64,000 nucleotides of DNA, taken from Pelagomonas calceolata (Eukaryota). Below the pieces are notes generated by a model. The model saw nothing but the letters and a program-made list of their open reading frames with translations. It was not told the origin of the DNA and made no database searches. Made by a program: the position numbers and the translations under genes. Below are positions 8,169 through 60,911 of this stretch, piece by piece. Positions within the stretch are counted from its first letter, which is position 1; every line of letters begins with the position of its first letter. The DNA is taken from the NCBI GenBank assembly GCA_918797485.1, contig CAKKNE010000005.1:2356001-2420000 (forward strand), in the 5' to 3' direction.

Positions 8169-8190
8169 CTAGAGGCCTGTAAGACACTAG
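8169..8190. promoter_or_regulatory. CTAG-box motif copy
   Basis: CTAGAGGCCTGTAAGACACTAG, 50 bp upstream of the nucleoplasmin-like ATG. Confidence 0.65.
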
Positions 8191-8318
8191 CAATCGCAGC
8201 TTCTCGACGTTTACGCGACCTGCGCCGTGGCGACACAGAAAGATCACAACCGCCAACGGCCGAAACAGGAAGTCACAACCGATAAACTTACGAACACACG
8301 ACGACGAGCGCATCGGCA

Positions 8319-9047
8319 TCACGTCGCGACGAACGCCACAAAGACCGCCGCCGACGCGCCCAGGGCCAGCACCGAGTTCACGGGCTTGAGCTCGTCGAGG
8401 AGCGGCGCCCAGGCCTGCCGCCCCCGCAGCAGCGCGACGAAGGGCACGCCCGAGGTCTTCGCCTCGCGCTCCACGGAGAGCGACCCGCCCATGCCGCGCC
8501 GGTGCCGCGAGTCGAGGTGCGTGCCGTTGACGAGCGCCACGAGCGGGAAGCCGAGGGCCGCCGCCGCCGTGCCGGCGAAGGGCGTCATCGCCGCGCAGCC
8601 CAAGCCCAGAAAGCCCAAACTCCAGAACTGCGGGTGCCGCGTGACGCGCTCCAGTCCCACGACGTCCGTCGGCTTTTCCGCGCGCGCCGCCTTCAAGTCC
8701 AGCGGGCAGCCCGTGAAGTCGTCGGACATGGGGTTCGCGAGCGCCGGGGCCAGGTTGAACGCGCCGACCAGTCCTACACAAGTAAGCGCCGATCCTAATG
8801 CTAAAGACGGCGGGCCGACGGTCCGCACCCGCGGCCCCGGCCCGTGGCGCCACAGGCCGTACGCCACCGACGCCAGGGAGCAGGTCGACAGCAGGCCGTA
8901 GCAGGACTTGTAGCCGCGGTCGCCCAGGCGGTCGATGAAGACCTGCCGGTTCTCGGACAGGACCGCGTTCTCGGCGACGAAGAAGAGCCAGCCGCCGCCG
9001 CAGAGGTAGACGCTCGGGTGGGCGAGGACCTGGGCTGGCGGGAGCAT
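8319..9047 (-). CDS. NnrU-family membrane protein
   Basis: TRHPQFWSLG and TSGVPFVALLRGRQ motifs, several TM segments; start uncertain. Confidence 0.75.
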   Translation of the reverse strand: MLPPAQVLAHPSVYLCGGGWLFFVAENAVLSENRQVFIDRLGDRGYKSCYGLLSTCSLASVAYGLWRHGPGPRVRTVGPPSLALGSALTCVGLVGAFNLAPALANPMSDDFTGCPLDLKAARAEKPTDVVGLERVTRHPQFWSLGFLGLGCAAMTPFAGTAAAALGFPLVALVNGTHLDSRHRRGMGGSLSVEREAKTSGVPFVALLRGRQAWAPLLDELKPVNSVLALGASAAVFVAFVAT

Positions 9048-9331
9048 CGCTTCGAGCTGGTTATTTCGAGCAATTGCGCGCAGCGAAGCCTGATCGCGGT
9101 GCTGCACGTCAGGAGACTGTGCTGGTCAGCAATTTTAGAGAATGCGCCGCAGCGACGGCGTGATCGCTGTGCTGTCAGGAGCTGTGCTTAGGTCAGCACC
9201 CTCTGCCAGAGTCTGGGCAACTTCGGACGCTGCTGCCGGGTAATGACGAACCGAATCAATGGCAACGAGGGCAGGCACCGCTATTTTGGTGCTGTTTTGG
9301 CTCCGTATGAGCTCTAGCAAACTCGCCCTGG

Positions 9332-9353
9332 CTAGCGTAGAGTAACATACTAG
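9332..9353. promoter_or_regulatory. CTAG-box motif copy
   Basis: CTAGCGTAGAGTAACATACTAG in a divergent intergenic region. Confidence 0.55.
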
Positions 9354-9484
9354 ACTCCATCTCGCAAATCAGGCTGTAGGGTGAAGAGCCGATTCCGGTG
9401 TGTCGTGGGGGAAGTGGGAGCCACGACTCGCACCTCGAGGCTGCCCGGACCAGCGGAAGGCACCAACGCACAGTTACAGGGACC

Positions 9485-10162
9485 ATGCAGCGCTGGCTCT
9501 CGCGGACGTCGAGCCTCTTCTCGGTGCGGACGCACCGCCGCAACTGGACGCAGCGGGCCGGTGGTTTGGTGGAGGCCGAGCTGCCGGCGAACCCCATGCT
9601 GTTACTCGACGAGTGGCTGGCCGCGGCCCTGCAGGATGGCCACATCATCGAGCGCGGTTTTGTGCTGGCGACGTCTTCTGCTGAAGAGGGCCCGACGGCG
9701 CGGACCGTGGTCTGCCGCGACGTCTGCGAGGACGGGTCGATCACGTTTGGTACCAACCCTAACTCTCTCAAGGGCCGGAGTTTACGGGACGAGCCGCGCT
9801 GCGAGGCCGTGTTCCGGTGGGGCACGCGGCAGGTTCGGTTGAGAGGCACGTGTGCCGTCGACAATGACAATACAGAGGAGATGTTCCGGACGCTGCCCCG
9901 GCCGGCCAGGGTCTCGCTGGAGCTCCTCCACCCCATCGGTCAGGGGAACGACGTGTCCGAGGCAAAACATCAGGAGCTCCTCGCCGATGTCGAGGCGTCT
10001 TCCTTAGATCCGCAGACGCCGCCCGCCACGTTCACGGCGTACCGCATCACGGCCTCGACCCTCGAGTTCTACCAGTCGCTGCGCGAGGACTTTATTGTGG
10101 ACCGCTTCCTCTACGTGCGCGACGGCGCGGCCTGGAGCCCGCCGGTGCGTTTGGCCGGCTAG
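9485..10162 (+). CDS. Pyridoxamine 5'-phosphate oxidase-like FMN-binding protein
   Basis: LATSSAEEGPTARTV, SLKGRSL, RQVRLRG, EFYQ...DRFLY motifs. Confidence 0.8.
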   Translation: MQRWLSRTSSLFSVRTHRRNWTQRAGGLVEAELPANPMLLLDEWLAAALQDGHIIERGFVLATSSAEEGPTARTVVCRDVCEDGSITFGTNPNSLKGRSLRDEPRCEAVFRWGTRQVRLRGTCAVDNDNTEEMFRTLPRPARVSLELLHPIGQGNDVSEAKHQELLADVEASSLDPQTPPATFTAYRITASTLEFYQSLREDFIVDRFLYVRDGAAWSPPVRLAG

Positions 10163-10393
10163 AAGAAGCCCGTGCAATTGGACCAGCTGATGTACATACT
10201 GCAGCAAGCTCCTCCACCGCTTTGCGTCGCGCGCGCCGTCGCTCGGGCGCGCACGACGCCTCCCGTCGCTCCACCCTTCGCTCAATTCGCTCTCAAGGCT
10301 GGCTCACGCGCTCGCTCCGCACATGTCCGTGCTGAACGACGCGCCCTCTCCGTACATTCGCGTGCACATATCTATGCCTAAAAAACCAGTTAG

Positions 10394-11323: not shown

Positions 11324-11586
11324 GGCTGTAGTTGCTGCAGGGCTGCCCCCGGTGCGTCCGCTGCAGCGTCTTCTGGGCTGCTGGTTGCCGGGCGTCTAGA
11401 TGATGGGTTCCGAGTGCCTCGCGTGCAATGGGGCTTTGTGCGCCGCTTGCTCCCCGCGTAAATGGCCTGTGCTCCCCGCGTTAGAGTTCGGGTTCCAATC
11501 CCCGATGGCGGTGGCTGGGCGGCGCCGACGAGGTATGCGACCAGTCGCCGCCGCAACTATAGTTCTCGCGTGAAACGTAGCGCTTG

Positions 11587-11608
11587 CTAGTATCTTACAG
11601 CCCGCTAG
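11587..11608. promoter_or_regulatory. CTAG-box motif copy
   Basis: CTAGTATCTTACAGCCCGCTAG in a divergent intergenic region. Confidence 0.65.
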
Positions 11609-11709
11609 CTGTGGTTTCTTGTTTTAGCTTACGAGTCGCCTTGTGCTCCAATTGGTGCACCGCCATAGCTGATTGTTGCAGAAAAGGACCTTCAAGATCC
11701 TTATCCGCC

Positions 11710-13951
11710 ATGTCCAAGCGCCAAAAGACCGATGAAGCATGCCCTTGCTGCGAATTGAGAGCACGCCAGGCCTCGAGCTGGCAATTCCTACCGCCGAACA
11801 TGGCGCCAAAAGGCGCCTGCCAGCAGTGCGTGCTGCCGCCGCCGCCGCCGCTAAGTGACTACCTGCCGCCCTTCGTCTGGCCGCGCACGGCGGCGGAGAT
11901 CGAAGGGCTCGCCCAAGGAGTGGAAATAGACTTCACGTCGACGATGGACCGCGTCGCCGCCGTCTCGGACGCGGACGCGTCCGTGGAGACGGTGTTAAGA
12001 CCGCTCATGGGCGCGCCGCACTACAAGACGAACAAGGCCGTCGTCGAAGCAAAGTTCCTCCAGCACTGCTCGACGGATTCTGCCGTGAGAGAGGCCGCGG
12101 ACAAGGCCGGCGCGCGATTCGCGGCGCTCAAGGCGAAGGGCCGAACGGACCCGCGCATCTACGGCCGCGTCTGCGCGCTGGCGGCGAAGAACACCGTCTC
12201 CGGTCGCGACGCGCACTTCGTGCAAGCATTGAAAGCTGGCTTCGAGCGCAGCGGCCTCAACTTGTCGCCGGCCGACCAGAAGAAGTTGCAGGAACTGCGC
12301 GACGCCGACGCCAAGGTCTGCGGCCTCTTCAAGAAGAACCTCGCCGAGGACAAAACCGAGCTCCTGTTCGACAAGAATGAACTCGAAGGGTGTTCTGATG
12401 CCTGGATCGCGGAGCGGACGAGGGACGGGAAAGTCGTCGTTACGCTCAAATACCCCGATTTGATCCCTGTGCTGCAGCAGTGCTCCGTCGCTGCGACGCG
12501 GCGGCGCGTCTCGCGGGCGCGGGAATGCGAGGCGTACGGCGCGAATTTGGACTACGTGGCGGAAGGCGTCGCGATCCGGAAGCAAATCGCCGACCTGCTG
12601 GGCTACAAGAGCTGGGCGCATCTCAGTACCGAGACGAGGATGAGCGGCTCGCCCGAGGCCGTCACGGCCTTCATGGACCCGCTGCTGGCCAAGGTCAAGG
12701 AGGGCGCGGCGCGGGACCTCGAACGCTTGAAATCTCTGAAGGGTGGGGCCCTCGAGGCCTCCGACGTCAGCTTCTACTCCGCTAAATTATTGAAGGAACA
12801 GTATGGTGTAGATCACGAGGCGGTACGCGCCTACTTTCCTCTCGATCATGTGGTGGCGACGACGCTCGAGATCTACCAGGAGCTGCTAGGCTTAGAGTTC
12901 ATCGAGATCGAGAAGTGTGGACGCGGCGTCGCGAAGCGTCTTCCGATCGTCGCGTCGATGGCGTGGAGGGGATCACGCCGTCACGCCGTCGCAGGTTCGA
13001 CACGTGGCACCCCGCGGTGCGCCTCTTCCGCGTCATTGATGTGGCGACGAAGCAGAAGCAGGGGTTCTTCTACCTCGACTTACATCCCCGCGACGGCAAG
13101 TACGGCCACGCGGCCATCTTCCACCTCCTAAAAAGATGGGGCGACCAGGTGCCGGTGGACTGCATGCTTTGCAACTTACCAGCTCCCTCGGCCGACGGCA
13201 AGCCGGCGTTGTTACGGCACTCGAACTGCGTCACGTTCTTCCACGAGTTCGGACATATTATGCACGGTTTATGTGCTTCCGGTGATGGCAACTCGACGAC
13301 GCTGGCGAAATGCCCGCGCGACTTCGTCGAGGCGCCGTCGCAGATGCTCGAGAACTGGTGCTGGACCGTCGAAGGGTTGAAGCGCCTGTCGAAGCACCAC
13401 GAGACCGGGGCGACGCTGCCGCGCGATTTGCTGGATAAAATGCTCGACGCTAAAAATGTCAACGTCGGGTTGAACATGGCGCGGCAGATCTATCTGTCTA
13501 CTTTGGATTTGGAGATCCACGGCACCGATCCGCCGACGACGGCGGAAGGTCTGCAGGCGCTCGTCGATCGGTTGCGGCCGGAGATCTCGCTCATCGAGAA
13601 CCCGCCGGGCGCGAACATGCTACGCTCGTTCGGTCACCTCATGAATCAATACAGCGCCGCGCTGTGTGGAAATCAAAATTTTACGGCGCGTTCGCGTCGA
13701 CTCCATGCCATCGACGCGCCGATTTCGACACAGGTGCCGCGTATTATGGCTATCTGTGGGCGGAAGTGCTCTCGGCGGATATGTTTAGCCAGTGTTTCGA
13801 GAAGGACCCCTTCGACGCGAAGGCGGGCCGGCGCTACCGGGACCTCGTCCTTGCGCCGGGCGGCGTCGGAAAGATCCTCGACCACCTCACCACGTTCCTC
13901 GGCCGGCCGCCGTCGCAGGAGGCGTTCCTCAAAAGCCGCGGCATCGCGTAA
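11710..13951 (+). CDS. M3-family metallopeptidase (thimet oligopeptidase/neurolysin), 3 exons (11710-12914, 12995-13653, 13734-13951)
   Basis: FYLDLHPRDGKYGHAA, HEFGH zinc motif, DFVEAPSQMLENW, YSAAYYGYLWAEV; removing two 80-nt introns gives a continuous 693-aa ORF. Confidence 0.92.
12915..12994 (+). mobile_element. Degenerate introner-derived intron (80 nt)
   Basis: GT...CAG intron restoring EIEK/FDTWH; starts GTGTGGA like the family TIR and contains the core CGTCGCGTCGATGGCGTGGAG. Confidence 0.7.
13662..13733. mobile_element. Introner element (MITE-like); intron 13654-13733 with GC donor
   Basis: TIRs CTGTGTGGAAATC / GATTTCGACACAG; 8-bp TSD GCGCCGCG (13654-13661) and GTGCCGCG (13734-13741). 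Confidence 0.9.
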
Positions 13952-13964
13952 ACATTAGTTCTAC

Positions 13965-19088: not shown

Positions 19089-19111
19089 CTAGTGTCTTTA
19101 CATGCCGCTAG
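19089..19111. promoter_or_regulatory. CTAG-box motif copy
   Basis: CTAGTGTCTTTACATGCCGCTAG between kinesin and GNAT. Confidence 0.65.
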
Positions 19112-22213: not shown

Positions 22214-22235
22214 CTAGTGGCTTGCACGACGCTAG
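22214..22235. promoter_or_regulatory. CTAG-box motif copy
   Basis: CTAGTGGCTTGCACGACGCTAG between trpS and TRM112. Confidence 0.55.
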
Positions 22236-24226: not shown

Positions 24227-24248
24227 CTAGCGGCCAGTAAGACACTAG
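24227..24248. promoter_or_regulatory. CTAG-box motif copy
   Basis: CTAGCGGCCAGTAAGACACTAG upstream of the MYND gene. Confidence 0.65.
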
Positions 24249-24325: not shown

Positions 24326-27300
24326 CTAGCACCACGGCGACCACCCCGGGAACAGCACGCACAGGTTGTCCCGGTCCGTCGCCTCCGCTATCAAATGCGT
24401 CACTTGGCCCTCGACGCTCAATGCATCATGAGTCGTATCGGAATACCCCTGGAGCTTCTGCTTCACTCTAAATAATGCTCGTTCGGCCGCCTGGTTGTCC
24501 GGCGGCGCCGCGGACTCCCGGTCCGCCTGCGAGTCGCCCTCGCGTTGGAACCGAGACGCGTCGCCTGGGGTCAACATCCACCGGTAGAGAGGATCATGTA
24601 TTAACACATCCAAAATAGTCGTGAGGGCCTGGTAGTTCTGCCGCAACTCGCTCATGCAGTCGACAGATGAAGAAAAGAACGCGCCGCGCGTACCAGCACA
24701 GCCCATCCCGTCGATGACATCCCGCGACAGCCGAAAGGGAATGACCTCGGGCATCGTCAATGTCTTGCCCTGGTCGAAGGCGATGCCGAAATCAATGTGG
24801 ACCTGTTCTCCCGTTTTACTATCAATAAGTATATTCTGGACGTGTCGGTCGCCGATCCCGAGGACATGTCCCACCATCGCATTGGCTGCCACGGATCGCG
24901 TATACGCATCTCTATGCCTTAACCATGTTTTGGCGTCCGCACACGTTTCTAAAAAGAAAAATCTAAAGGCCGGCCGGAATCTACTACAAACTTCGTCAAA
25001 CGCTTTTCGTTTTCTAGCTTGGGTGGTATTCACAGGTTTCCGTTGGGTAGAAGACGCAGATTGCGACGTGTGCTTGATGGCATCTAACCGTTGTCGACAC
25101 TGCGTGTGTTTTAAATCCTCGGGAAAGTACCTCTCGTGCGCGCCTTTCGGCTCGTTGCGAGGTACGAGGTACATGCCAAAGGGCAAGGTGTGCTCGACCC
25201 ATTCTATCACACCCGCTTGAGGAGCTAACGGTACGATGGCGTAGGTCCTCACTCGCAGACCGTGCGGTCTCCGTTTCCTCTCTAGTAGGTTATTCACGGC
25301 GTCGAAGACCTGCTGCATCACGGCATCCTGCCGCACGTCATCGTTGCCCTTGACTAACTGCCTTCTCTTCAGACCGTCACTCCCAACACAGGACACGATC
25401 TTCGGTCGATGAATACCCGAATCGGTCAGCTTGAAGGTCTGCACGACACTCGAGAGAGAGGGAGCATCACTACCGGAAGACGTAGACGACCCTAATGCCG
25501 TAATTACTGGAGGAGGTTCAGATCTTTGTAATTTCTTAGCTACGGTGTCGAGAGCACAATTCGCCTTAAAAACACTGAAGGGTATAGGATTTGTCTGATA
25601 CGTCTGCTGGATCTTCTTGGTGTCGGCCATGGCGAGGTCCACGTAGCACTGCGCTAACAAGTCTAGGGAGTTCGCAACGGCGCCCTGTTCGCTTCGTAGT
25701 AATCCATCCAATAGTTTCCTTGCGACTCGAACCCTCTCGCTACCCTCAACATTTTTAGCGAAAGCTGTCGAGCCCTTGCCGGCGTCGACTCGCGAACCGT
25801 TCGCAAGAGCTATCAACTGTAAGATGGTCTTGGCCGGTGCGGCTTTTGCGAGTTGTAGGAGTAAGGCTTCCAGCGTTTTCTGGAAATTGTTGCCGTGTGA
25901 GGCTAGTCTAGAAGACAGCTGGTAGAGTAGCGGCGCAAAAGCTAATAACCTCGACAACGGTGCTTTTCTCACCACTTTCATGAGTTGTTCATTCGAAGCG
26001 TCCACATCAGGGTTGCCGAGCCACAAACTCACTAACGTGGACGCCGCTCGTCTAGCTAAATCGTCGCAGGCGCCCTCGCCCATCAAAACGCCACAAAGAG
26101 CCTCGATACTTTCGACGAGGGCCGCTTCCGTCCGGCCCGTCAACGCATCTAGTTGATCCGAGTCCATCTTGCACTCCCTCTTCAGTATTGTGACTTGCCG
26201 CCACAAATGGTCGCGCCCGCCCGCCTCCGACGCGATCTTTTTCGCTTCCGCCGTGTCCGCCAATGACAAATGACCACTACCTCTAGGTGTTTTTCTACCA
26301 ACAGAATCAACAGCAGCATACAAACGCTCTAGTCTTTCGAGTTCTCTTTTCCGCTCCGAGGCGACTTTGCGAGCCTGGCGCCACTCCGGCGTTTTACTTC
26401 GAGTCACTAGCGACGCATGCATGTCCGCGACGTACTCGCCTAACGCTAGGAGTGCTTTCCTCCTCTCAGATGCTTCCTTGACGGCCGGTCTCAGGTAGGC
26501 TTCTAGGACTCGTGATGAAGATTCGGACGCGTTCTGCGTCGCCCAATCAGAACATAATGACAAAGCGTCCTTTCTAACAGAAGCCATGCGCTTGTCTGAG
26601 GGTGGTATGGTCTCGACGGCCCGACGCGCGACGGCGAGAGCCGCATGAGACTCCCCTCTACTCCAGGCGACCCTAGCTTTCAGTAGCTTGATGCGGCCCG
26701 GCGCGCTCGCATGTTGTGCCTTTCCAATGCGTTGGAGGCTCTTGCAGACGACTTTTGCTCTAGCTGTCGCGGCGACGGCCGTGCCGACGCTGTTTCTAGA
26801 TGAAGCGAGCGACACGACCGACGCCAAGTGGTCCAATAAAGCCGCATCTAGATCGCATGACGTCCGCTCATCATCGCCCAAAGCTACCGAGAGAGCCCTC
26901 AAAGAAGCCTCGCGCGCGGCTAAAGCAGGTTCCGCGTTCGACGAAAAGGCACCTTGAGAGCACCCCAGCGCCGACGCGTCCCGTTGGGACCACCTCTGGA
27001 GCATGTCGTCCAGACCACCGCCATCGTGAGACACCTGGGCCGCTTCTCGAACTTCACAAATACTGACCAACTTCGAACGCGCGTCGTCTATGATTGGTTG
27101 CACCGCGACTCTATGCAGAGGCGCCAACGCCAAGCGACGGGCGTTCTCCAGCCGCTTAAGAGCCGCAGCCTGGTCCCTCGAAGCTACCGCAGCGAGCGCC
27201 CCATGTAAAGCGCCATCGTAATCGACGTCAGTCGCCCCATCGGCGGGCGCCCACGCCCAGTCCGCACTGCGCCAGGCGGCTTCCGCTCCTAACGTCGTCG

Positions 27301-30300
27301 TGGCGTCGATGTAGCCGTCGGCGACGTGGTGCAGGCCCAGTCTTCTCAGGGCTGAAGCGACTGCGGGCTTGTGTTGACTGCCGAGGGACGCATCTAAGTC
27401 TGTGAGGACGTCGCGCCACGTGCCTCGCGCTCGACCTCTCGCTAGCGTGGCGTCCTCATCGTCATCATCCTCGACATTTTCTTGCGCCGCATCCAACGCG
27501 TCGGCGTCGCCTAACAACGCGTGGGCCTTGACCAGCGCTTGGTCGCACCTAGTATTTTCATCGATCGCCAGTTCTCCATGTAACACAGCTGTCCAGGGCG
27601 CGTCCGTTTGCGACGCCGCCTGCGCTATCAATGACGCCGCAATATTGAGAGGGGCACCGTAGGGTAGATTTCCACGACCATTCGAGGATTGTACAATAGT
27701 TAGAGGGTCGAGCTTGGCTTTTTTTCTAGGTCTCTCTTCAGAAGTGCTTCTGACAAACAATTCTAATTCGCATCTTCGTGTAAACGACGCAATATCACAG
27801 GCGAGCTTCCTCTGACAACCGCTCTCGAGCGCGTCCGACAGGTGATCACTAAGAGCGTCTCGAGCTAGATCCCTCGCGGCTTTCCTGCCTTTCGCCGAGT
27901 CGCCCGCCCTTGCGCACACGACATCGTACACCACACCAGGCAATATGAGCGCGGCGAACGGTACCGATTCTGAAGCGAGTGAAGCACAGGCCCCCCACAG
28001 CGCGTCATTACCGGTAGACGGGTAGCATCCCCTCAGTAACGCACCGGCCACTCGACAACTCCACTTTTCATCTTTTTGATTCCAAATCTCTCCATCGAAG
28101 GGCCCCGCGTCCATGTCCATATCGTCCTGACGTCTCTGGCGGTCCTGATGTCGGTCTTCGTCCATCAAAGCTGCTGCTCTAATAGATGCGTCGCTGAGGA
28201 AGGGCAATACTAGTGCGGAGTGGGCGTCGTCGCCGCAGCTCCTTCTCACGTCTTCGTCGCTCGCCGCCGATAGATGGCGCATCGTTTCTAAGGCGGCCTT
28301 CGCGATCGTTGGGTCGTCATCCACCAGCGCGCGCGCGACGGCGCGGCAGCTCCTCAATCTTAGCGTCGCTAGTGACTGAGGGAATCTTGAATCTTCTTCT
28401 TGCAGCGGGGGCTCGTCATTCATAGTACTCTGCGCACCGCCCAATTCTCCTAAACAGTCCGCTGCTAATGATCGTTCCCGCTCGTTTGTAGTAGAGGCGC
28501 AGATCGTCGCTAGGGATGCCGTCGAGACATGTCCTCCTTCCAGTCTTAGTTGTTTAAGTAGCGATGCCAACGCGAAGGCTCTTCTAGGTCTCTCTAACGG
28601 TCCGGGGTCTGTCCGGTGTATGTCCCCAAATAAAGCGAGCCAGTCCCAGTCGTTGTGATGGCCCGCGCTCGCGAAGCGCTGGGACGGTAATAACGCTGAT
28701 GCTCGCGCGAGGTCGGGGTGCGGCCTCATTACTAATGCTTCCACAACCTTCCGGGCCTTGTCCCTTCCAGATACACTGCACCTTTTGATGGACATCCAGC
28801 CGCCGTCCTCTTCATTGTCAGAGCGCGCTATCGACCCGGCTAGAACCGCAATGGTAGCTACTAATGGTTGGAGCGCTCGACGGCCCGCGTCCGTACTTAG
28901 GCACCGCAGGACGACCTTATTTAGTAAATCACTCACTTCTTCAGGTTCCGTCGCGACACTTCTCACGAAATGACTCAAAGCCGCCGTGACGACGCCCGCG
29001 ATCGCTACCGTATCTTCAGTATCATCATTAGTACCTTCTAACAAACACGCGCCGCGGAGGATCGCTCCCACGGATTGGAGCGAAGTGCTCCTCAGCACCA
29101 ATTCGGTCGCGTTGCACCTCTGTAAAAGCATCTTGACTGTAGTGCTGTGGTCTGATGAAGCTAACTCCGCCAGAGCTTCGGACACCCGCTCACTATGAGT
29201 ATCTTCCAGTATAGCTGAAGCGACGAAGTGAACTCGTGACCCGATGAACTGGTTGCACCGCTCCGAACCACCTAACTCTCTATCCAAAAATTCGCGCATG
29301 CGTTGGGAGGCGTTCTTCCTCGCCAATTTTATGGACTCCTTCTCGTCTTCCCTCGATGCCGCTCTACGTAATAAAACGCCGGCGACAACTTGGGGCGCCA
29401 CGTTGCCCACTAAGTGTCGGCGCCCGGCGTCGTCTCCACCTAACCCACTCAGATCGGCCAGGGTGCTGAACGCGGCAAATCGCAAGGACGCGTCCTGCGC
29501 GGCCGCGAGCGGTGCCGCGGCTTGCCGCGACGCCATCACCGCGAAGGCTCGCTTTGTGGGGGCGAGTCCACAGAATGCATAGGGAAATTCGGCCAACGTG
29601 TGGGCTTGTTTACCCGTAGAAGCACCCGTCGTCGCGTCGATGCCGCACCACTCGGCGACGACAGCGCCCAATCTTCTATGTAGTAACTCAGCCGCACTCG
29701 CGAGGCCTTGCGCTTTCGCAGCTCTCGCGCAGGCCGCGCCGGCGACGCTCACCATGGTGTCGCGCGTCGCCGCACGCACTAACGCTCCCAAAGCTCTGTC
29801 AGTAGCCCCACCATTCACGACCCCGGCGACGACACCGACGCACCTCGCGCACGTCGCTTCTAATGCCCTCCAATGAGCAGCGTTCGCCGAGATCGATTGA
29901 TCGTCGTCGTCGTCCGAATCCACGCCGATGCCTCGATCAGGATCGTTATTCTCATCAGATGGCAGGTTGACTTCGTTGTTGGGACCCATCACTAGTAATG
30001 ATTTCTTGGCACAGACGGCGGCGTCGTGCTCCCGATCTTGATCTAAGGACGGTAAATGAGAACAGAGCGTCTGCCAGACCTTGGCGTGGTTCTTCGCGGG
30101 GTAGGCTTCGAAGAGCGCCGCGACGCCGTCCGCCGCCGCCTGCCGGCAAACTTGCGCGTCATCGACAAGAGCGTCGACCACGGTGCGAACACACGACTGC
30201 TTGAGTCTTTTCGCAGCGTCTCCGGACTTGTCGCCCCATGTACTAAATGCGGTCGCGGCGGCCCGGACCTGCGCCGCCCTTGCTGTACCTTTTCTTGATA

Positions 30301-33300
30301 GGGCCACGGCCAATGGGGATGTACTATTAGGGTCCTTGGCGACTAATAAGAGATCGGTACAGGGCGCGACGACCTCGTCGACCTCGTCTTGCGCGCACCT
30401 CGACGTCGCGAGCTGCCCCAACAAAACCCCCAGTGCCTCAAAGGCCTCCGGGGCCGCGGCGTTCGAACTTTTAACGTCATCGTCATCAACGGACTCCACG
30501 ACTAACGCTTGGTTCGGCGCGAGCCAGCCCTTGGACAAGAGACCTAAAGCACACGCGCGCGCGCGCGGCGCCTTGGCCTGGCCGCACCTTTCTAGGATAG
30601 CCCTCGCCACGCGGCCCGCATCTCTTCTATCCCGCATGCACGCTCTAGCACCTCTTCTCGTTCTCACTCGTCGATAGGCCTGGGCCAGCGCTTCGGCCGT
30701 CGAACCGACTTCCGAATCGGACGCCAGGTCCAACGCCGCCCTACTAAGCCACACGGCACAAGCTCGAGAACGCGACGGAATCCGCGCCTCGGAGTCGCGC
30801 TCGACCGTCTTCACGGGCTGCGGGAGGAAGCCGTCGTCGCTGTCGGAATCCATCAAATCGTCCTTCTCTCTCGTTTGTTGCACCGGAGCATCCCGCGACG
30901 CCCTAGCTGCCCCGTAGTTGTCGACCTGGTCTGTGACCTTGTCTCCTAAGTTGCTCAGGTTCGTCTTCAATAATTGGGAAGGGGCCGTCTCTCTTATTGT
31001 AGACGCGACGCTCGCTAATACTCTCGCTGAATCAGCGTACGTGTCCAATTCTAGCAGTGAATCTTCATCACCATAATCCCAGGCCTTTTCTAGATCCTGT
31101 AACGCTCGTCCGACGTCCAGATCCAGATTCCGCGCCCTCTGAGCGTCGCCGCCACACACTCTTAGTTTTCGCAACCGAGCCAGCGCGAACGCGTTCCGGT
31201 GCCTACTAGAAGCCTTGGCCGCGGCCATGGCTCGACGCTTCCCTCTATCGCGGGGCACCTGCGCGCCCCGCATGGAATGCGCCGCTTTTGCAGATTTGAG
31301 CTTGGTCAGGACCTCGTCGACCAACAGGCCGGCCTCGCGCGCGCCGGGGGCGTGCGGCGGCTCGCCTTGGCCCGGAGTGACTTCTTCAATGGTAGGCAGG
31401 GCCCAGGCGTCTTCTTCATGCTCGTCAGACCCTCTCAAGAGCTCGGGCGCCCGCGGCGGCTTTGTCAGAGGTTGTCTCGGTGCAATCAGCGACGCGACGG
31501 TGTCGACGGCCCGGGATAATGCTACAGACGATAACGCGTCGTCGCCGTAGCACCGCTCGATGACCCGACATAGGAACCGGACTAGGCGCTGGCGCCGGTT
31601 CCGCGGCGGCGCCTCGCGCTCCTCGTCGTCCTCCATCGCATCGTCGTCCTCCTCCTCCACATCATCACTCCCACCAACTAACGACACATCTAAGCGCGTC
31701 TTCGCCGCGAAGCCGTTCACAATGGAACACGCACACGCTGTTGTACGAGCGTCGCCCGTCTCAGTAAAAAGTGGAGAGCTCCACAGCGATGATGCCGCTT
31801 GCTGATCACTTAGACCCTGGGCATCCACTAAACCCAGGCCCAGGCAGCCCGCCGCGGCCGACGTCGCCGCCGCTAAATCCCTTTGAGAAAAGCGCGACCG
31901 CCGTTTTTCACCTAACGCTCGCGCGACGCTTTTCCAGGCCGACCGCCACGCTTCTATCAGTGGAGACGACTCGGCCACATCTAACGCTTGCCGCGACGCT
32001 TCTGCGAGTCGTCGTAAAGCAACTAAAGACCAGGCCCGTTCGTCGGACCGCTGCGTGCCGGCCGACGACGCGTCCAGAGCCGATGACGCCGCTTGGACAC
32101 AATCAGCTAAAACGCGGCACCACTCCACACGCGCTTGCAGCACGTCGTCCGTCGATACGTTTTGTGATGCGGACACGACGGCTACATCACAATCCCACGG
32201 CACACGTTCATCATCATTCGTGGCGGCCGACGCCTCCAGAGCCGCAGCTAACAGTTGCAGGGGCGGCGCCGTCGACGTCAGCGACGCCTTCAGGGCGCGT
32301 TCGGGGCCCGGCTTTTGTGAGGCGTCGTCCCTTCTGGCGGCCGAAGTGATCTCCGCCGCCAACGATGTGAGAGCAGCGCCGTCGACGGGCCAGCCCGGCG
32401 GGGCCCTTGCTGCACACAACGACCCGAAGAGGGCGACGTGGGACCTCATCACAGGTCGGAGAGGGGGCGCCTCGGGCCACCTCCGGTCAATCTGCGGCTC
32501 CGCGCCGAGGTTCGCGGCGGCCCTAGCTTTGGCGTTGCTCGCCGCTAAACGAGCGAGGCGCGGCAGCAGCTTCTTGAGCTCGGGGCCGGCCCTTGAAGCG
32601 GCCGCGGCGACGTAGTCGAAGACCGCGCTCTGCACGGACCGAATGCCCGCCTCGCCTCTACTGGGATCCGTGAGGCGCGCGACGCAGGCCGCGGCGACGT
32701 GGCCGAGACCGTGGCAGCCCCGCGCCGCGAGGCGCGCCGCGTCCGCCGGGGCCCTCGAATGGAGCGCGGCGAGCGCCTGGAAGACCTCTACGGCCGGCGC
32801 CTCATCATCTAATTTCTCCTCGACGTAGAGGTTCCGCAAACACCCAGCGCAGGCCCGCGCGAGCGCCTCGCGCGCGTAGCGGTCGTCCGCCAAGTCCGCG
32901 CCCCGCTCCGCTAATCTACGTAACGCCGCGGCGGCGGCCTTCCGCGCGCCCGCGCGCTCGTGCGGCGGCGGCGCCGGGTCCGGAAATCTACCTCGGGCGA
33001 TGCGCGCCGCCGGCGCGCAGATCCGGCGCGCGGCCTGGCGCCCATCGAGGTTCCGCCCGGCCAAGGCCACGGCCGCCGCTTCAATGGCCTCCGGCTCTCC
33101 TAATAATCTTTCGAGGACGCGGCCGTAGGAGATGCACCAGACCTCGCCGGCCTCGCCATAAGCCGCTGATGAAAAGTTGAGCAGGTCCTCTGCACAGCCC
33201 GCCAACCTTCGCCCGGAAGGTCCGTCCGCGCACCACGACGTGATGCGCTCCACCAGATCGCCTACTTCTCGTCTCGGCGCGCGCCGCGTCTTCTTCGCGG

Positions 33301-33659: not shown

Positions 33660-33681
33660 CTAGCGTCCTGTAAGACACTAG
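33660..33681. promoter_or_regulatory. CTAG-box motif copy
   Basis: CTAGCGTCCTGTAAGACACTAG between ATM and DnaJ. Confidence 0.65.
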
Positions 33682-37120: not shown

Positions 37121-37651
37121 AATGTGGGTGTGGGGGTTACTACGTTGTTCCGGCGCCTCAGCCGCACGCGCTGCGCCAGCGTTTCGGTTATCGCTGCGAG
37201 TTGTAGTTGGACGACTTGTAACTTGACTTGCACAGCTATGTGGCTCCGCACACAGTCCAAAAAAGCGGCGCCGCACCCGCTTGTCCTAGTGTGTCTAGGC
37301 CGCTCTCGGTCGCCTGCGGGAAGTCGCGGGACAAGTTGATTGAACGGGCGAACGTTGCACATTGTTCGGGGGGGTTTGCCGAGGCGGTTCTGCTTAGAAG
37401 GAGGTACGCTGTTATGAAAGAAGCGGCCCGCGCCCGCCGCCGATGAATCGGCGACGCGCGGTGTCTCCCCCCCAGGGGCTCCGCCCACTAGTCCTAGTAC
37501 CGTAACATCGACTAATAATCGTGCCGTAATTACGTAAAAAATAGTTATCAACACATCTACATTCCCACCGCAGCTCATCTCTTCGCCGCCGCCGTCGCCG
37601 CGCGCGTCCGCAGCCAGCCCGGCGGCCACTCGTCAGAGCCGCCACGGCCAC

Positions 37652-39192: not shown

Positions 39193-39214
39193 CTAGTGTC
39201 TTTACAGACGCTAG
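39193..39214. promoter_or_regulatory. CTAG-box motif copy
   Basis: CTAGTGTCTTTACAGACGCTAG upstream of the transporter. Confidence 0.65.
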
Positions 39215-41376: not shown

Positions 41377-41398
41377 CTAGCGGCATGTAAGATACTAG
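41377..41398. promoter_or_regulatory. CTAG-box motif copy
   Basis: CTAGCGGCATGTAAGATACTAG between ORC6-like and ankyrin genes. Confidence 0.65.
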
Positions 41399-45640: not shown

Positions 45641-45661
45641 CTAGCGGCAGTGAGACACTAG
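45641..45661. promoter_or_regulatory. CTAG-box motif copy
   Basis: CTAGCGGCAGTGAGACACTAG. Confidence 0.6.
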
Positions 45662-46555: not shown

Positions 46556-46621
46556 GTTGTCTCGACTTCACCAGGTCCTTTGCGGCCGCCGCGGCGGCGG
46601 CGTGTGGCTTCACGCGTCCGT

Positions 46622-46732
46622 GTTGCTGAGGCTGAGGCTAGTTACGTCGCAGGGTTCCCCGTACCCCTCCCGCTCCCCCCGGTTGCTGAGGCTGAGGCTA
46701 GTTACGTCGCAGGGTTCCCCGTACCCCTCCCG
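46622..46732. repeat. Tandem duplication, two identical 51-bp copies with 60-bp period
   Basis: GTTGCTGAGGCTGAGGCTAGTTACGTCGCAGGGTTCCCCGTACCCCTCCCG at 46622 and 46682. Confidence 0.95.
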
Positions 46733-46740: not shown

Positions 46741-46762
46741 CTAGTGTGTTACATGCCGCTAG
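46741..46762. promoter_or_regulatory. CTAG-box motif copy
   Basis: CTAGTGTGTTACATGCCGCTAG. Confidence 0.65.
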
Positions 46763-48545: not shown

Positions 48546-48566
48546 CTAGTGTCAATGAGGCACTAG
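48546..48566. promoter_or_regulatory. CTAG-box motif copy
   Basis: CTAGTGTCAATGAGGCACTAG upstream of DUF1826. Confidence 0.5.
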
Positions 48567-50313: not shown

Positions 50314-50335
50314 CTAGCGTTCTGTAAGATACTAG
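50314..50335. promoter_or_regulatory. CTAG-box motif copy
   Basis: CTAGCGTTCTGTAAGATACTAG. Confidence 0.65.
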
Positions 50336-50384
50336 CAGATGTAGTCGAGATGGAAGATACCCTTAGCAGAGGTAGTCGAGAATG

Positions 50385-51496
50385 CTAGATACCCTTAGTA
50401 GAGAGTCGTCGCTGCCGCCGACGCCGTAGGGCGCAACAACACGCGGCCGCGATCCAGACGAACGACGAGACCACCGGCACGACGAGGACGTTCTTCTTGG
50501 GCCGCCCCGCGAAGGCGTCGCGCTCGTGCCACGACCGACCTCTCAGATGACCCACGAGCTTGAGCGGCGTCACTTTTCCGGTGTAGTAGCCGTCGCCGAT
50601 GATGATGACATTTCCCGCGGCGAAGGCGTGCGCGGACCGGTACTCGAGGAAGCTCTCCGTGAGGTGGACCGGTCCTGTCGTCGTCAGCACGGAGAGGAAG
50701 GGCCCGAGGAGCCGCCGCGGGAGGCTCGTCGCCTTCGCCGGCATCGTCTCCAGGACGTGTTTGAGGAACGGCGACCCCGCGCTCGCCAGCATCGTGTCCG
50801 GCGACAGAAAAGGTCCGAACTGGTCCGCGCGCGCCACTACGAGCTCCGGGCAGAGCGCGCGGACGGGCTCCCAGGACCGCCGCGCCATCACGTCGAGGTC
50901 GGCGTAGAGGCCTGCGTGGAAATCAAATGTCGCGGCGACCTCCACGCCATCGACGCGACGCCTGCGTGCACGCGACACACTTGTTGATTTCCACACAGGT
51001 AGATGCCGCCGTACTTGTGCAGAATCGCGTAGCGCGCCATGTCCGCGCGCTGGACCCAGCGCGGGTAGCTCTTGTACGTCGCCCAGAGGTGCGGATACTC
51101 GGTAAGAATCAACCAGTCGACCGCGTCCTTTGACCAGAGCACGTACTTCCACTCGTTCGCGAGCGCGCCGGGTGCCAATATGATTGGGTCCTCCACCTCG
51201 ACGGCGCGGTGGCGGTTCAGCCACGTCGCCTGCGCGCGGCGCCACGGCGACGGCATTTCTTCGTCGTCGTCCTTGAGTCCGAAAATTTGGTGGACGTACC
51301 GCGGCGGGCATTGCGGTGCGACAAACGCCGCCTCCCGCGGCGGCGTCGGTAGAAGCGCGCCTTCTGCGAAACCAATCCGAGTCCCGACGTACGCCGTAAG
51401 AGTTACGGCCGCCACAAGCGTCGTCGCAATTGCGCAGATCGCGGCGGCGGCGCGCGACCGGTAGTCGACGCGTGACCATTCGTCCGCCCGAGTCAT
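50385..51496 (-). CDS. GT32 (DxD) mannosyltransferase-like glycosyltransferase, 2 exons (51007-51496, 50385-50911)
   Basis: PRYVHQIF, QRADMARYAILHKYGG/LYADLDV after splicing, TTGP, H...RSW. Confidence 0.88.
50912..50998. mobile_element. Introner element; intron 50912-51006 with GC donor taken from the TSD
   Basis: TIRs CTGCGTGGAAATC / GATTTCCACACAG; 8-bp TSD GTAGAGGC (50904-50911) and GTAGATGC (50999-51006); family core present. Confidence 0.92.
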
Positions 51497-51680
51497 CGAT
51501 CACTGTCCTTTATGCTATTATTAGTTTGAGAGAGCCAATTGATTCTCAGACTTGTTATGCGTGGCTGGGTTGAGCGCACGGTCTTTTGTTGATGATTTCT
51601 TTGTTAATTCTGACGTGCCTCGTGCCCCGTACCGTTAACTTACGGGGCACGCATGAAACGCCGCGAGTTAAAAAAGTGAG

Positions 51681-51700
51681 CTAGCGTCCTAAGACACTAG
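51681..51700. promoter_or_regulatory. CTAG-box motif copy
   Basis: CTAGCGTCCTAAGACACTAG. Confidence 0.6.
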
Positions 51701-51900
51701 CCAGCATGGACTTGCGGGCGAGTGGAGCTTCATACGCAGGTGTGCTGCACAAACGCTTTAATTTCCCGTGTATTCGCTGCCCAGCAACCATCCTGCATCT
51801 TCTGCGGACATCAATCGAGGCGTATCGCACATCCAGCAGCCTTTGCAGTCGGTCATACGTACTCGCATCCTGCCCACGCCGTCGCGCATCCGCGGCAGCC

Positions 51901-54838: not shown

Positions 54839-54874
54839 ACGAACCCCCTCCCCCTCCCTTCCCCCCTAAGTGTA

Positions 54875-55447: not shown

Positions 55448-55870
55448 CTTGGCTGTGGATGCAGCCAAATATGGCTGAGCGATGCGGTTATTGCAACGAA
55501 TCAGTCCCAACGCAGCACAGGTTCAAAAAATATACTGCTGCGCCAGTCAATAGCAACGCTTAACGATTTATGCGGTCACACGAGTTGATTTGCGGAGGCT
55601 ACGCCATTGCCTATCCCAAGCACGCGGCTCTAGCCATGGCACCGCAGCACGCCCGTGACAAGTCGAAGAACGCTCGAATGATGTCCTGGAGGAACCCTCC
55701 GCTGCTGGGACTGCGTGCGGGTTGCTTGCAGGCTGTGCCAACATTTCAGGACCGATTGCGAGCGCACTGGCAACGTTCAGGCAGCGCAGGCTCGATCACA
55801 GCAGTGCGGCACAGTGCACCTCCCGCTTCAAAGCGGAAAATTGATCGCTGGCGTGCCCAAGAGCTCAAAA

Positions 55871-57586: not shown

Positions 57587-57593
57587 CAACAGA

Positions 57594-58532: not shown

Positions 58533-58730
58533 CTGTTACGCCGGCGCGTCGGCGCGTTTGTCGCTGTGACGTAAATTGCCTGAAGTGACAATGCAGCACC
58601 GGAGGCGCCTGGACGCGCGCTTTTTTGGTCTAGAAGTCCCCAACCAATTTTATGGGTAGAGCGGCTGCGCGGCGTCAATTTGTAACCGCAACAGCGCGGA
58701 CAAGCACGCCAACAAATGCATCGATGTTTG

Positions 58731-58750
58731 CTAGTGTCTTACGCCGCTAG
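58731..58750. promoter_or_regulatory. CTAG-box motif copy
   Basis: CTAGTGTCTTACGCCGCTAG. Confidence 0.6.
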
Positions 58751-58758
58751 GTCACGTG

Positions 58759-58837
58759 CCTCGGAGGAGCCCACAGAAGTACCAAAAACTCCCTTAGCCT
58801 CTGGAGCAGCCCAGAGAAGTACCAAAATCTCCCTTAC
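58759..58837. repeat. Imperfect tandem duplication (about 40-bp unit, two copies)
   Basis: GCCCACAGAAGTACCAAAAACTCCCTTA and GCCCAGAGAAGTACCAAAATCTCCCTTA. Confidence 0.85.
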
Positions 58838-58856
58838 GCCAGTCGCCGCGACCAAA

Positions 58857-59714
58857 CTAACGGATCCCCGGCGCCCGCATGCCCCCCGAGATGCCCTGGA
58901 GCGAGTTCTTGAGGGCCTTCGTGTCCGCCCACGCGCTGTGTAGATAATCATCATCATCCGCTTCCGCCAAAGCCTTCAGCTCCTCCTGTCTTTTGAAATA
59001 GTGGGCCATCATCGCCTTGCGCTCGCCCTCGGAGACGCACGGCTCGCGCGCGGGCGCGCCGTGGCCCGGCTTCTGGAGCTTGGCGACGACTTTGGTCTTT
59101 TCATTTTTGCCTACACGATCGCGCACGAGCTCCTCCCGGACAAATTCCTTCCCGGCGCACCACAACTGAGCCGTGGCCGGGTCAAGCAACCCCTGCTGGG
59201 CCTGCGTCCCATCCAAGCCCTCTTCACCCTCCAACGCACTATACACGGGATCGTGCTTCGGCAGGCCCATGGGGAAGGCCATGGTCACGGCTCCTTTCAT
59301 TGTAGTTAGTTTCTCCATCATACCTTCCTTGGTCAACGCTTTCCTCGCTAATGCGCGATCCTTCGAGATGTAGGCCTCGGCGTCCCGACAGACGTCGTTG
59401 AACACGTTCGTCATCTGCTCGCCGATGCCATTGCCCGTCCTGCTACCGCTCGGATCCTCCTTATAGTTATCAGCCTTCTCGACGAACGTACCACCGTTCA
59501 ACTGTTGGATGTGGTCGATGCCTTCTTCCCCATGTGGTTTACTCGGACCATGTTCTGCTAATTCAGACATGGCCCCACACAGGTACGCGATGCGGACGCG
59601 CGTGTTGTTTATGTCGACGAGTTCTCTCAGCAAAGTGTCATTGCTTGTATCACCCGTCGTCTCGTACAAGAACTGGTCCTCGCCGCCCTGGAACTTGACG
59701 TGGATGACGACCAT
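58857..59714 (-). CDS. CFAP298: Cilia- and flagella-associated protein 298 (C21orf59/Kurly)
   Basis: MVVIHVK...QFLYET, DPSGSRTG, GAVTMAFPMGLP, LWCAGKE, GKNEKTKVVAKLQK...APAREP. Confidence 0.92.
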   Translation of the reverse strand: MVVIHVKFQGGEDQFLYETTGDTSNDTLLRELVDINNTRVRIAYLCGAMSELAEHGPSKPHGEEGIDHIQQLNGGTFVEKADNYKEDPSGSRTGNGIGEQMTNVFNDVCRDAEAYISKDRALARKALTKEGMMEKLTTMKGAVTMAFPMGLPKHDPVYSALEGEEGLDGTQAQQGLLDPATAQLWCAGKEFVREELVRDRVGKNEKTKVVAKLQKPGHGAPAREPCVSEGERKAMMAHYFKRQEELKALAEADDDDYLHSAWADTKALKNSLQGISGGMRAPGIR

Positions 59715-60135
59715 CTTCTTTGGCTTTGCGGCGCTACGGCTGTTTCACGGCTTTAGCTGGGGCGCGTCGACAGCGTCTACGCGTCGCAAGTCTTGCGCTC
59801 GCTGCTAGATGGCTGTCGACGGCTTCGTGCAGAAATTTTGGGGGCGAGTGGCAGGGTTTGCGGCGTAGCGCCAAAAAGACTTCGATAAATCCGAGCCAGC
59901 TAGCGTATACATACTAGCTGGTACTCTAGGTGTTACGATAGTATCGGCACTATCGGCCCGCGCCAGCCGCCGGACGAATTGGCGACGCGACGCGCGCCAC
60001 TCGTCCTAGCACCGTGCGAGCTTGTAACCACAACCCACGCTCCCGTCGTCGCTCTACGTCGTCGCCACCGACTAGTTCCTCCTGCTCAAATGGAATACTT
60101 ATTGACCTCCGCGAAGGAAGAGAACGACGAACCAA

Positions 60136-60888
60136 CTAGAGGTCCGCCGTCGACGGCTGCGCCGCCGGCGAGAACGCCGCGTCGTCCACATCATACCCCG
60201 CCGCGGCGAACTGCGGCCCCGCGTCGCCGCCGCCGTCGCGCTGCATACTTTCAGGAGACGTCACGGCCACGTAGCCGTTCAGCGCGAGCGTGCAGAGTAA
60301 TATGATGGCCATCACGACGCCAAAAGTGCCCATCGCGAAGAGGAAGAGCACGCCCAGCACGGCCACAAAAGCCTCGCCTCGCAGGGTCGTGACAAAGGGC
60401 ACGACGCTCCTTAAAATGGACAGGGGCGGATCTAATTGTAACTCGACGCACGCTAGAGCTGCCGCAAAAAACGCCGTCTCCAACCCAATAATGACGCTCA
60501 AATACGAGCCTTCTTCACTCATGAAAGCGATGGCGCAGGCCACGCACAAAATGCTCACCAGTAAATTGAGGCCCTTGGCCAAGGCGGGGACGTCCAGCCC
60601 GCCCGTGACGGCGTCCATCCTCAACCCAGGTGAGGGCTGGCTGTAGAAGTTGTCGTCGTAGTTCCGCGACGGGAGCGTTGTACTAGGAGGCGCGTCGGGC
60701 TCGAAGGCCGCGTAGGGGGCGCTTTGGGAGTCCTCCAGCTTTGCGTAGACGCCGAAAGTGGCGCCTCGGCGTCCGCGTGACCCGTGCTTCGAGACGCGCT
60801 GTGGAGGTTGCGGTGTTGCGTACAGCCTAGGATCTGGTATGTCTCCAGCAGCCGAGGAACAGGCGCGCAGACGAAAAGCGGGATACAT
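60136..60888 (-). CDS. COPI-associated/Tvp15-like multi-TM protein (start uncertain)
   Basis: Four hydrophobic helices, PFVTTLRGEAFVAVLGVL. Confidence 0.6.
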   Translation of the reverse strand: MYPAFRLRACSSAAGDIPDPRLYATPQPPQRVSKHGSRGRRGATFGVYAKLEDSQSAPYAAFEPDAPPSTTLPSRNYDDNFYSQPSPGLRMDAVTGGLDVPALAKGLNLLVSILCVACAIAFMSEEGSYLSVIIGLETAFFAAALACVELQLDPPLSILRSVVPFVTTLRGEAFVAVLGVLFLFAMGTFGVVMAIILLCTLALNGYVAVTSPESMQRDGGGDAGPQFAAAGYDVDDAAFSPAAQPSTADL

Positions 60889-60889
60889 G

Positions 60890-60911
60890 CTAGTATGTCT
60901 TGGTGCGCTAG
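60890..60911. promoter_or_regulatory. CTAG-box motif copy
   Basis: CTAGTATGTCTTGGTGCGCTAG. Confidence 0.5.

Follow-up and report, generated by a model that had tools for sequence, protein, structure and literature searches.

A 22-bp element with the consensus CTAGCGGCCTGTAAGACACTAG, based on 161 copies from the window and the metagenome loci listed, is carried by roughly one half to two-thirds of the promoter gaps examined in Pelagomonas calceolata. The window is the whole stretch of DNA that was analysed, 64,000 nucleotides of contig CAKKNE010000005.1. This element is real and under selection. In our opinion, it is probably (at a probability of roughly 0.6, judged from sequence) the double-stranded site at which an abundant general regulatory factor would bind upstream of the start, and not a core-promoter box. 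A literature search found no published description of the 22-bp element.

The element and its copies

The element is built of invariant CTAG arms and a looser 10-bp middle. Distances between CTAG starts in the window peak at 18 (12 pairs), every other distance up to 60 being represented by at most two pairs. The pattern CTAGCG-N9-AYACTAG with one mismatch allowed gave 11 matches in the window against 0.09 expected, a number reached in 0 of 100 shuffles, and a two-arm matrix gave 16 sites scoring at least 18, against 0–1 per shuffle in 10 shuffles. Both pattern and matrix were built from the window's own copies; therefore, independent support for the element comes from the metagenome set.

All 17 strong copies claimed by the first-pass annotation were confirmed at the coordinates given for them. 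One lies in a tandem gap upstream of a nucleoplasmin-like gene (8169..8190, + strand). Copies in divergent gaps are those at 9332..9353 (+, NnrU-like/PNPO-like), 11587..11608 (−, unknown/peptidase M3), 19089..19111 (−, 23 bp, kinesin/GNAT), 22214..22235 (−, TrpRS/122-aa ORF), 33660..33681 (+, PI3K-like kinase/DnaJ), 41377..41398 (+, 657-aa ORF/ankyrin), 51681..51700 (+, 20 bp, glycosyltransferase/His-phosphatase) and 60890..60911 (−); at the latter the left ORF has its first ATG 2 bp off the motif, probably not the true start. Further copies in tandem gaps are those at 24227..24248 (+, upstream of a MYND gene and behind a PI3K-like kinase gene), 39193..39214 (−), 45641..45661 (+, 21 bp), 46741..46762 (−, with repeat family a adjoining the CACTAG arm), 48546..48566 (+, 21 bp, a rare TG/TG-armed form), 50314..50335 (+), 58731..58750 (−, 20 bp) and 59900..59917 (+, 18 bp, upstream of CFAP298, its right arm adjoined by a decayed repeat b). 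Of two further copies described as degenerate, that at about 6831 has no support, being under the matrix threshold with a best score in its gap of 8.1, which is in the shuffle range. The other (37286..37308, −) has one arm only and is borderline, with a score of 12.7–13.8, near the shuffle range. The occurrence of a single copy per region in both orientations was borne out, as was, on the gene list, the lack of functional relation between the flanking genes.

Metagenome scanning provided at least 118 usable Pelagomonas-like loci, which together with the window hold the 161 copies among the matches listed. At least 124 stretches were listed, from which L045 and L100 (low-GC chance matches), L012 and L094 (duplicates of L011 and L028) and two others were omitted. 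Locus L037 belongs to a divergent lineage. Pelagomonas is an abundant ocean alga, and among the protein clusters sought for 10 queries, eight were found, of which three were species-named, all three as P. calceolata. Genes were called with our own Markov model, which missed three ORFs of the window. Counts named non-index leave out the copies by which each locus was fetched. In 43 non-index copies the total length is 22 bp (24 copies), 21 bp (9), 23 bp (4), 20 bp (4) or 18 bp (2), so the length of mostly 20–23 bp reported earlier holds; its equation with two helical turns does not, the CTAG centres being 18 bp apart, i.e., about 1.7 turns.

The strict pattern had no match in viruses; the loose one hit 19 viral stretches of 36–50% GC, whose middles lack the consensus and which were judged to be chance matches. 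Five matches were found in 185,579 genomes of bacteria and archaea, and, judged by motif context and ORFs, they sit on short fragments within marine assembled genomes that look like pelagophyte DNA. Four of these genomes contain 1–5 matches each over their whole length, and the element is therefore not prokaryotic. An Rfam search of the window returned tRNA only and no RNA family for the element.

Placement relative to genes and the flanking landscape

No copy out of 161 in the window and the metagenome loci listed lies inside a coding segment, and in the non-index gaps of the same set the motif occurs in 35 of 73 promoter gaps vs 0 of 62 convergent gaps (p = 3e-12), or, at gap lengths of at least 250 bp, in 35 of 70 vs 0 of 21 (p = 7e-6). 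The absence from coding sequence and convergent gaps, noticed in the first-pass annotation, thus extends to the metagenome loci. A single gap of L028 holds two copies that were called as lying between gene ends. In the window alone, 17 of 27 gaps containing a gene start (three of the 27 being uncertain) and 0 of 12 convergent gaps have a copy (p = 2e-4). Outside it, a strict copy is present in 18 of 46 non-index promoter gaps of at least 250 bp, or in 22 of 46 when four relaxed copies are counted, and the initial statement that most promoters carry the element has to be reduced to the share given above. Motif-less promoter gaps mostly show no trace of it (28 of 35 score below 10), and the search for a second motif in these promoters found only A-tracts and GGCTGCCC, the latter being present in motif-bearing gaps too.

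Orientation relative to the gene in tandem gaps is free (13:18, p = 0.47), and in divergent gaps the motif occupies the middle half in 34 of 38 cases (p = 3e-7). The median distance from motif to ATG is 172–192 bp. Core-promoter boxes (TATA, initiator, oomycete INR-FPR) must be fixed in orientation and no more than about 40 bp from the start, and the motif fails in both respects. The first reading as a general core-promoter or nucleosome-organising element bound by a dimeric factor is retained as to a general, protein-read promoter element, based on position, free orientation, arm constraint and orthologous conservation. It is abandoned as to a core-promoter box, in view of the free orientation, the remote ATG and an initiator-like signal 130–158 bp away.

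This signal was found on the gene-start sides. In 151 such sides the CG frequency is 0.083 at 130–158 bp from the motif vs 0.117 at 94–122 bp (p = 3e-5), and that of CA is 0.093 vs 0.074 (p = 2e-3), the 130–158 bp interval having been picked after the data were seen; the words enriched in it are CACTG, GCACT and CACAG. The CG-poor, CA-rich zone is absent on 43 gene-end sides and also when the sequences are aligned on the ATG. On 24 sides belonging to the window only, CG falls (p = 0.008) and CA does not rise (p = 0.86). The oscillation around the motif, with a signal on the sides of both arms, is reached by 0 of 200 random-shift controls. Closer to the element, a four-base A or T tract occurs 6–34 bp outside the arms in 78 of 143 copies vs 28 of 143 at 90–118 bp, and there is an AT-rich bump at 65–80 bp. 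The called ATG is less than 140 bp from the motif on 44 of 146 sides, which means that not every gene can start in the zone, and upstream-ATG avoidance, used as a proxy of the start site, revealed no change of density across it (p = 1.0). By the sequence proxy, the zone at 130–158 bp may be the main start-site zone. No nucleosome-length periodicity in CG, AT or GC was detected out to 1450 bp in about 90 sequences, a set of low power.

A mark for replication licensing, or an insulator or roadblock, sharing the promoter gap and not driving transcription would also be single in each gap, free in orientation and indifferent to the function of genes, and in tandem gaps the motif is at a median of 97–120 bp from the upstream stop codon. 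One site per 3.8 kb is very dense for replication origins, and the density in the window is about that. A roadblock is expected where termination is needed, i.e., in the 62 convergent gaps that lack the motif, and both variants are at odds with the equal occurrence in divergent and tandem non-index gaps (18 of 41 and 17 of 32) and with the confinement of the 130–158 bp signal to gene-start sides. We consider this explanation unlikely. Yeast general factors serve as roadblocks as well (PMC5052057).

Even less probable is a methylation boundary or sensor, whose CG arm would be read with or without 5mC and which would shield the promoter from DNMT5. DNMT5a is present in pelagophytes and accompanies linker methylation in Aureococcus (PMC9998398). 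Such a function agrees with the low CG within 200 bp of the motif and with the CG of the left arm, kept in 39 of 43 non-index copies although the other arm has TG. Against it, TG in the 130–158 bp zone is flat (0.061 vs 0.059), and since TG is not raised where CG falls, the CG trough is not due to deamination.

Constraint on the arms and the origin of the copies

In hold-out counts on non-index sequence, each of 21 right arms is accompanied by a left one that gives a total length of 20–23 bp, matches to the middle only have both CTAGs in 10 of 10 and 8 of 9 cases, and the right CTAG is present in 24 of 27 left-plus-middle matches. In a scan without the CTAG requirement, which gave 22 distinct sites and 0.4 per shuffled run, only 2 of 52 mismatches fell in the eight CTAG positions vs 19 expected (p = 3e-8); mismatches avoid these positions, and neutral decay is therefore rejected. 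Two pairs of orthologous promoters could be compared, three of their four copies having been selected by pattern, and both are filled. In the pair L019:8275/L037:1991 the motif differs at positions 7–9 only, and four-fold sites differ at 43 of 110.

The arms are nearly always unlike, CTAGCG standing opposite CTAGTG or CTAGTA. Among 48 pairs, 30 are CG/TG, seven CG/TA, two TG/TG and none CG/CG, with nine others, mostly chance (p = 5e-5). GCTAGC is the usual sequence of the left arm (among 43 non-index copies, G precedes CTAG in 34 and C follows it in 39), and the right arm reads ACTAGC. A plain homodimer, as the originally proposed dimeric factor might be understood, fits poorly; because the arms differ, the binder would be either a heterodimer or a single chain carrying two DNA-binding domains related to each other.

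The view that the element is a neutral relic, left by duplication of a CTAG target or as the footprint of an excision, or else a single-strand hairpin, has already been largely refuted and is the least probable of all explanations considered. It is true that CTAG can be read as a direct repeat and equally as an inverted one and that the bottom strand of the consensus with flanks folds weakly (−3.6 kcal/mol). A relic disagrees with the avoidance of CTAG positions by mismatches and with the filled orthologous pairs; a CTAG-targeting MITE or its footprint was likewise rejected, there being no empty orthologous sites (two of two pairs filled) and no uniform decay. As to the hairpin, 10 of the 11 position pairs in 142 22-mers pair as often as expected if the columns are independent (central pair 0.13 vs 0.08), positions 5/18 are mispaired in 141 of 142, no compensatory base-pair change between the arms was seen and the mean predicted fold energies are −0.4 and −1.3 kcal/mol. 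Unlike arms without pairing covariation mean that the element is not a hairpin, and a REP-like structure is ruled out by the absent compensatory changes and the lack of a stable fold.

A more serious possibility, although a doubtful one, is that the motif descends from the termini of a mobile element, rolling-circle (Helitron-like) or CTAG-targeting, was spread by copying and is now selected. The information content of the motif is about 31–33 bits (a partly circular value) vs about 13 needed; this excess over the need of one ordinary factor, like the homogeneous middle, hints at copying. Some copies have CTAG-ended repeats polar to them, and these repeats are young. Family a is represented in the window by two 51-nt copies at 46618..46732 (−), polar to the motif at 46741, and is present too in L007 and L044. 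Family b, with 14-bp hairpin arms and then a CTAG-rich end, lies at 37397..37507 (+), and its decayed copy at 59954..60015 (+) shares the strand of the motif at 59900. Family b adjoins the CACTAG arm in several loci, and its polarity differs at 37397..37507. Of 11 occurrences of families a and b near a site, 10 are on the CACTAG side and the same strand (46741 and 59900 in the window; L007, L035, L044, L052, L092, L095, L104 and L113), the exception being the repeat at 37397, next to the degenerate 37286; a weak match of 21 bp in L051 disagrees too. Family i is on the CTAGCG side and the same strand in nine of nine cases listed. By eye, the end of repeat b resembles the left arm and middle of the motif. 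In L044, a hairpin with 14-bp arms precedes by about 10 nt a CTAG with T after it, and CTAG is joined to TC in five loci or window sites; the hairpin before CTAG-T recalls Helitron termini, and the CTAG-TC joints recall their head-to-tail junctions (PMC4778049), so that repeat b may be Helitron-like. A Helitron would further have an A-T target and an autonomous RepHel partner.

On the other side, 134 of the 161 copies lack flank homology, no information is left beyond positions −1 to 27, family i is joined to a or b in no locus, and the polarity of repeats could equally well be due to oriented insertion beside a bound factor. T follows the right CTAG in only 3% of 118 rows, against the Helitron A-T target, and with no upstream hairpin, no such target and so few shared flanks the motif itself was rejected as a Helitron terminus. 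A repeat terminus, the finding that was to count against the first-pass reading, is thus not recognized in most copies, and is still allowed for by the polar repeats that accompany roughly one in ten. As an account of origin, this explanation is compatible with the site of a general factor.

Comparison with known systems and significance

The site of a general regulatory factor would have these properties, which were seen here: the motif occurs in many unrelated promoters yet is absent from coding sequence and convergent gaps, is orientation-free, constrained and conserved and stands beside poly(dA:dT). The putative factor would bind the element, hold the promoter open and fix the start sites at a roughly constant distance on whichever side the gene lies. 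We only infer that the element organises nucleosomes, acting together with T-tracts as a barrier, as Reb1 does. In this the element is like the yeast sites of Reb1, Abf1 and Rap1, in which one site serves many unrelated promoters, is orientation-free and is found upstream of the start with A/T tracts close by. The Reb1 site forms a unit with a T-tract, and the Abf1 site is bipartite. Membership in this group was rejected, the consensus having no likeness to the motifs of these factors when compared by eye. It also differs in its much greater length of 22 bp, about 30 bits, quasi-palindromic shape with unlike arms, middle flexible by 1–2 bp and presence in about half of the promoters. Reb1 aligns nucleosomes whatever the orientation of its site (10.1101/2020.02.28.969618).

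Long sites of housekeeping promoters are known in animals, such as Drosophila Motif 1/M1BP, the ZNF143/THAP11 site and REST RE1 with its variable spacer. They are likewise long, high in information and widespread, ZNF143 occurring at bidirectional promoters and RE1 having variably spaced half-sites; unlike our motif, Motif 1 has a fixed orientation and sits at the start site itself, and RE1 is a repressor site. In most copies the left arm reads the same as GCTAGC, the Toxoplasma AP2XI-5 element, which is positioned in promoters at 84 bp upstream of the gene start (PMC13734140). That element consists of one 6-mer, occurs in 12% of promoters and shows a bias to the cell cycle (PMC13734140). Ours is a two-armed 22-mer with ACTAGC as the right arm. 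The words enriched 130–158 bp from the motif resemble the initiator YCAYTYY of oomycetes, which are also stramenopiles (PMC3599244). The oomycete INR, FPR and DPEP are oriented and at the start site, unlike the motif, and CTAG is absent from the main text of that paper (PMC3599244).

To our knowledge, almost nothing is known of the promoter logic of pelagophytes. The Pelagomonas genome comprises 32.4 Mb and 16,667 genes (PMC9481584). Extrapolation from the window density gives roughly 8,600 sites genome-wide, or about 5,000–6,000 at the share found in the metagenome loci. If this scaling holds, one long motif marks a large part of all promoters and could be used as an anchor for the annotation of genes and start sites, as a lineage barcode in ocean metagenomes and as a minimal bidirectional promoter part. 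It would also be a direct bait for a general regulatory factor in a stramenopile, and the information excess together with the polar repeats makes the genome-wide spread of such a site testable.

Copies in the window and in metagenomes

All 17 strong copies that the first-pass annotation had listed for a two-armed element of about 22 bp (left arm CTAGCG, right arm of the type CACTAG) are present in the window, which is gene-dense, eukaryotic and of 63% GC, and a one-mismatch pattern gave 11 matches there against 0.09 expected. Of the two degenerate copies proposed with them, that at 6831 received no support in matrix scoring and that at 37286 has a borderline score.

Further copies were obtained by a metagenome scan that left six middle positions of the motif free and matched at least 124 stretches. 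Among the matches listed, 122 loci were delivered, 120 of them at 54–73% GC; two chance matches and two duplicates were dropped and 118 loci kept. In the 118 rows among the matches listed, each of these positions is dominated by one base (G, C, C, T, G and T, at 61–87%), which makes the consensus CTAGCGGCCTGTAAGACACTAG; at lower frequency, AG precedes it and CAAGC follows. The window and these 118 loci among the matches listed contain at least 161 copies, including 43 non-index ones, that is, copies other than those that fetched their loci. Dispersed repeats are common to the window and motif-bearing loci, three loci (3 of the 8 protein clusters found) have proteins that either match named P. 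calceolata proteins exactly or fall into 90% clusters with them, and ribosomal L4 from locus L066 has 68% identity to other pelagophyte genera. The source of the window is taken to be P. calceolata itself or a very close relative. No genuine occurrence was found in the viruses and prokaryotes scanned. Contigs of assembled marine genomes in which motif-bearing pelagophyte-like pieces adjoin prokaryotic DNA (L142–L146; G001–G004) are probably assembly chimeras; L145 and L146 contain one identical piece of this kind.

Selection on one part of the motif recovered the held-out rest in 21/21, 10/10, 8/9 and 24/27 cases. A plain mismatch scan found 22 distinct sites at no more than five mismatches, with 2 of the 52 mismatches at CTAG positions; the CTAG arms are not absolute, the first C being changed in three copies. 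In one orthologous promoter pair, four-fold sites differ at 43 of 110 and the motif is altered solely at positions 7–9; in a second pair the motif differs at four positions, three of them in the middle. The motif is a degenerate palindrome over its whole length and its arms stay unlike (CG with TG/TA in 37 cases, TG/TG in 2, CG/CG in 0). Since they do so, and no pairing covariation was found, the pattern points to recognition of the double strand through a pair of binding surfaces that are related without being the same.

Position relative to genes

Coding segments were called by a model of coding sequence for which the window served as training set. Absence from coding sequence, as claimed earlier, holds for all copies (0/161, window and loci among the matches listed), and the claim that convergent gaps, which lie between two gene ends, are free of the motif was borne out by our own gene list for the window, at 0/12 against 17/27 for start-bearing gaps. 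The 161 copies, again among the matches listed, comprise 38 in divergent gaps, 31 in tandem gaps, 2 between ends, 44 with a start and 8 with an end on the known side, and 38 in unknown contexts; both between-ends copies sit in a single odd gap of L028. Among non-index gaps of the window and listed loci, the motif occurs in 0/62 convergent gaps, in 18/41 divergent gaps, in 17/32 of the tandem gaps that reach 250 bp, and in 0/34 short same-strand gaps, most of which are presumably introns. Its orientation is free, as had been noted (13:18 relative to gene direction). The median distance to the ATG is 192 bp over 79 sides or 172 bp over 70, that from the upstream stop codon 97–120 bp, and in 34 of 38 divergent gaps the motif lies in the middle half.

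The promoter of ribosomal protein L4 in L066 (260–785) contains no clear motif (score 9.7), and from this one case ribosomal-protein genes may use another element. The window also contains a tRNA gene (7588–7660, minus strand) inside an apparent intron of a nucleoplasmin-like gene (7098–7887), and gene-interrupting palindrome-rich inserts at about 12925–12980, 13659–13721, 50911–50996 and 61835–61917, which recur in many loci and are likely introner-type introns. A 9.2-kb single ORF on the minus strand (24326–33481), occupying the lowest-GC stretch, encodes a PI3K-like kinase, which we take to be ATM-like, with FAT, kinase and FATC regions.

Neighbouring repeats

The information content of the motif is about 31–33 bits, a partly circular estimate, against about 13 that would suffice. 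Flank sequence is common to another copy in 27 of 161 cases (window and loci among the matches listed), and sharing between non-orthologues reflects small families of repeats whose polarity relative to the motif is fixed; these may carry the motif, or may insert beside a bound factor. Families a and b occur in the window at 37397–37507, 46618–46732 and 59954–60015, and in L007, L035, L044, L052, L066, L092, L095, L104 and L113. They are young, with a 14-bp-arm hairpin, a CTAG-rich end, tandem sub-units and, in one of the families, ends like those of Helitrons; they lie on the CACTAG side in the orientation of the motif, 37397–37507 being the exception to the usual polarity.

Another repeat of 30–45 bp with the core AGGGCTCC was found in L010, L019, L028, L035, L036 (two), L059, L066, L107 and L112, at 14–80 bp from the CTAGCG arm and always on the strand of the motif; it may be either a co-factor site or a mobile remnant. 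In L028, a small element (3794–4070) with 15-bp perfect inverted ends surrounds a TG/TG variant of the motif and adjoins degenerate TTAGGG repeats. Its inverted-end palindrome recurs in the window at 51596–51640, 40 bp from the motif at 51681.

Flanking composition and proposed action

T-runs, read outward, peak 6–30 bp beyond both arms, and AT content climbs at 65–80 bp. At 130–158 bp, an interval chosen after inspection of the data, CG falls and CA rises on the start sides of both arms, and enriched words resemble the initiator. This shift was not seen on end sides or in ATG-aligned sequences, and the CG drop is present in all three ATG-distance classes beyond 140 bp. Weighing on the other side are this choice of interval and three findings: CA does not rise there in the window-only subset, upstream ATG density is flat across the zone, and the called ATG lies closer than 140 bp on 44 of 146 sides. 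No phasing signal was seen farther out.

In our opinion, the motif is, with a probability of roughly 0.6, the site of a general regulatory factor. A two-part protein would bind both arms and, together with the T-tracts, keep the gap open, and start sites would be set about 140–160 bp away on either side. Reb1/Abf1 sites may be alike in mode of working, and their sequences differ from the motif. The word GCTAGC of Toxoplasma AP2XI-5 occurs in the left arm and offers a lead only.

The motif was not found among the papers listed on P. calceolata, Aureococcus promoters and nucleosomes, stramenopile core promoters and motif strings (work on the chromatin and introners of Aureococcus, by Huff and Zilberman in 2014 and by Huff et al. 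in 2016, which could name a related motif, fell outside this coverage), and 'motif', 'promoter' and 'palindrom' are absent from the main texts, supplements aside, of PMC9481584, 10.1101/2024.10.30.620910 and PMC13284251. It may be concluded that this apparently undescribed motif is a real, constrained, lineage-wide promoter element.
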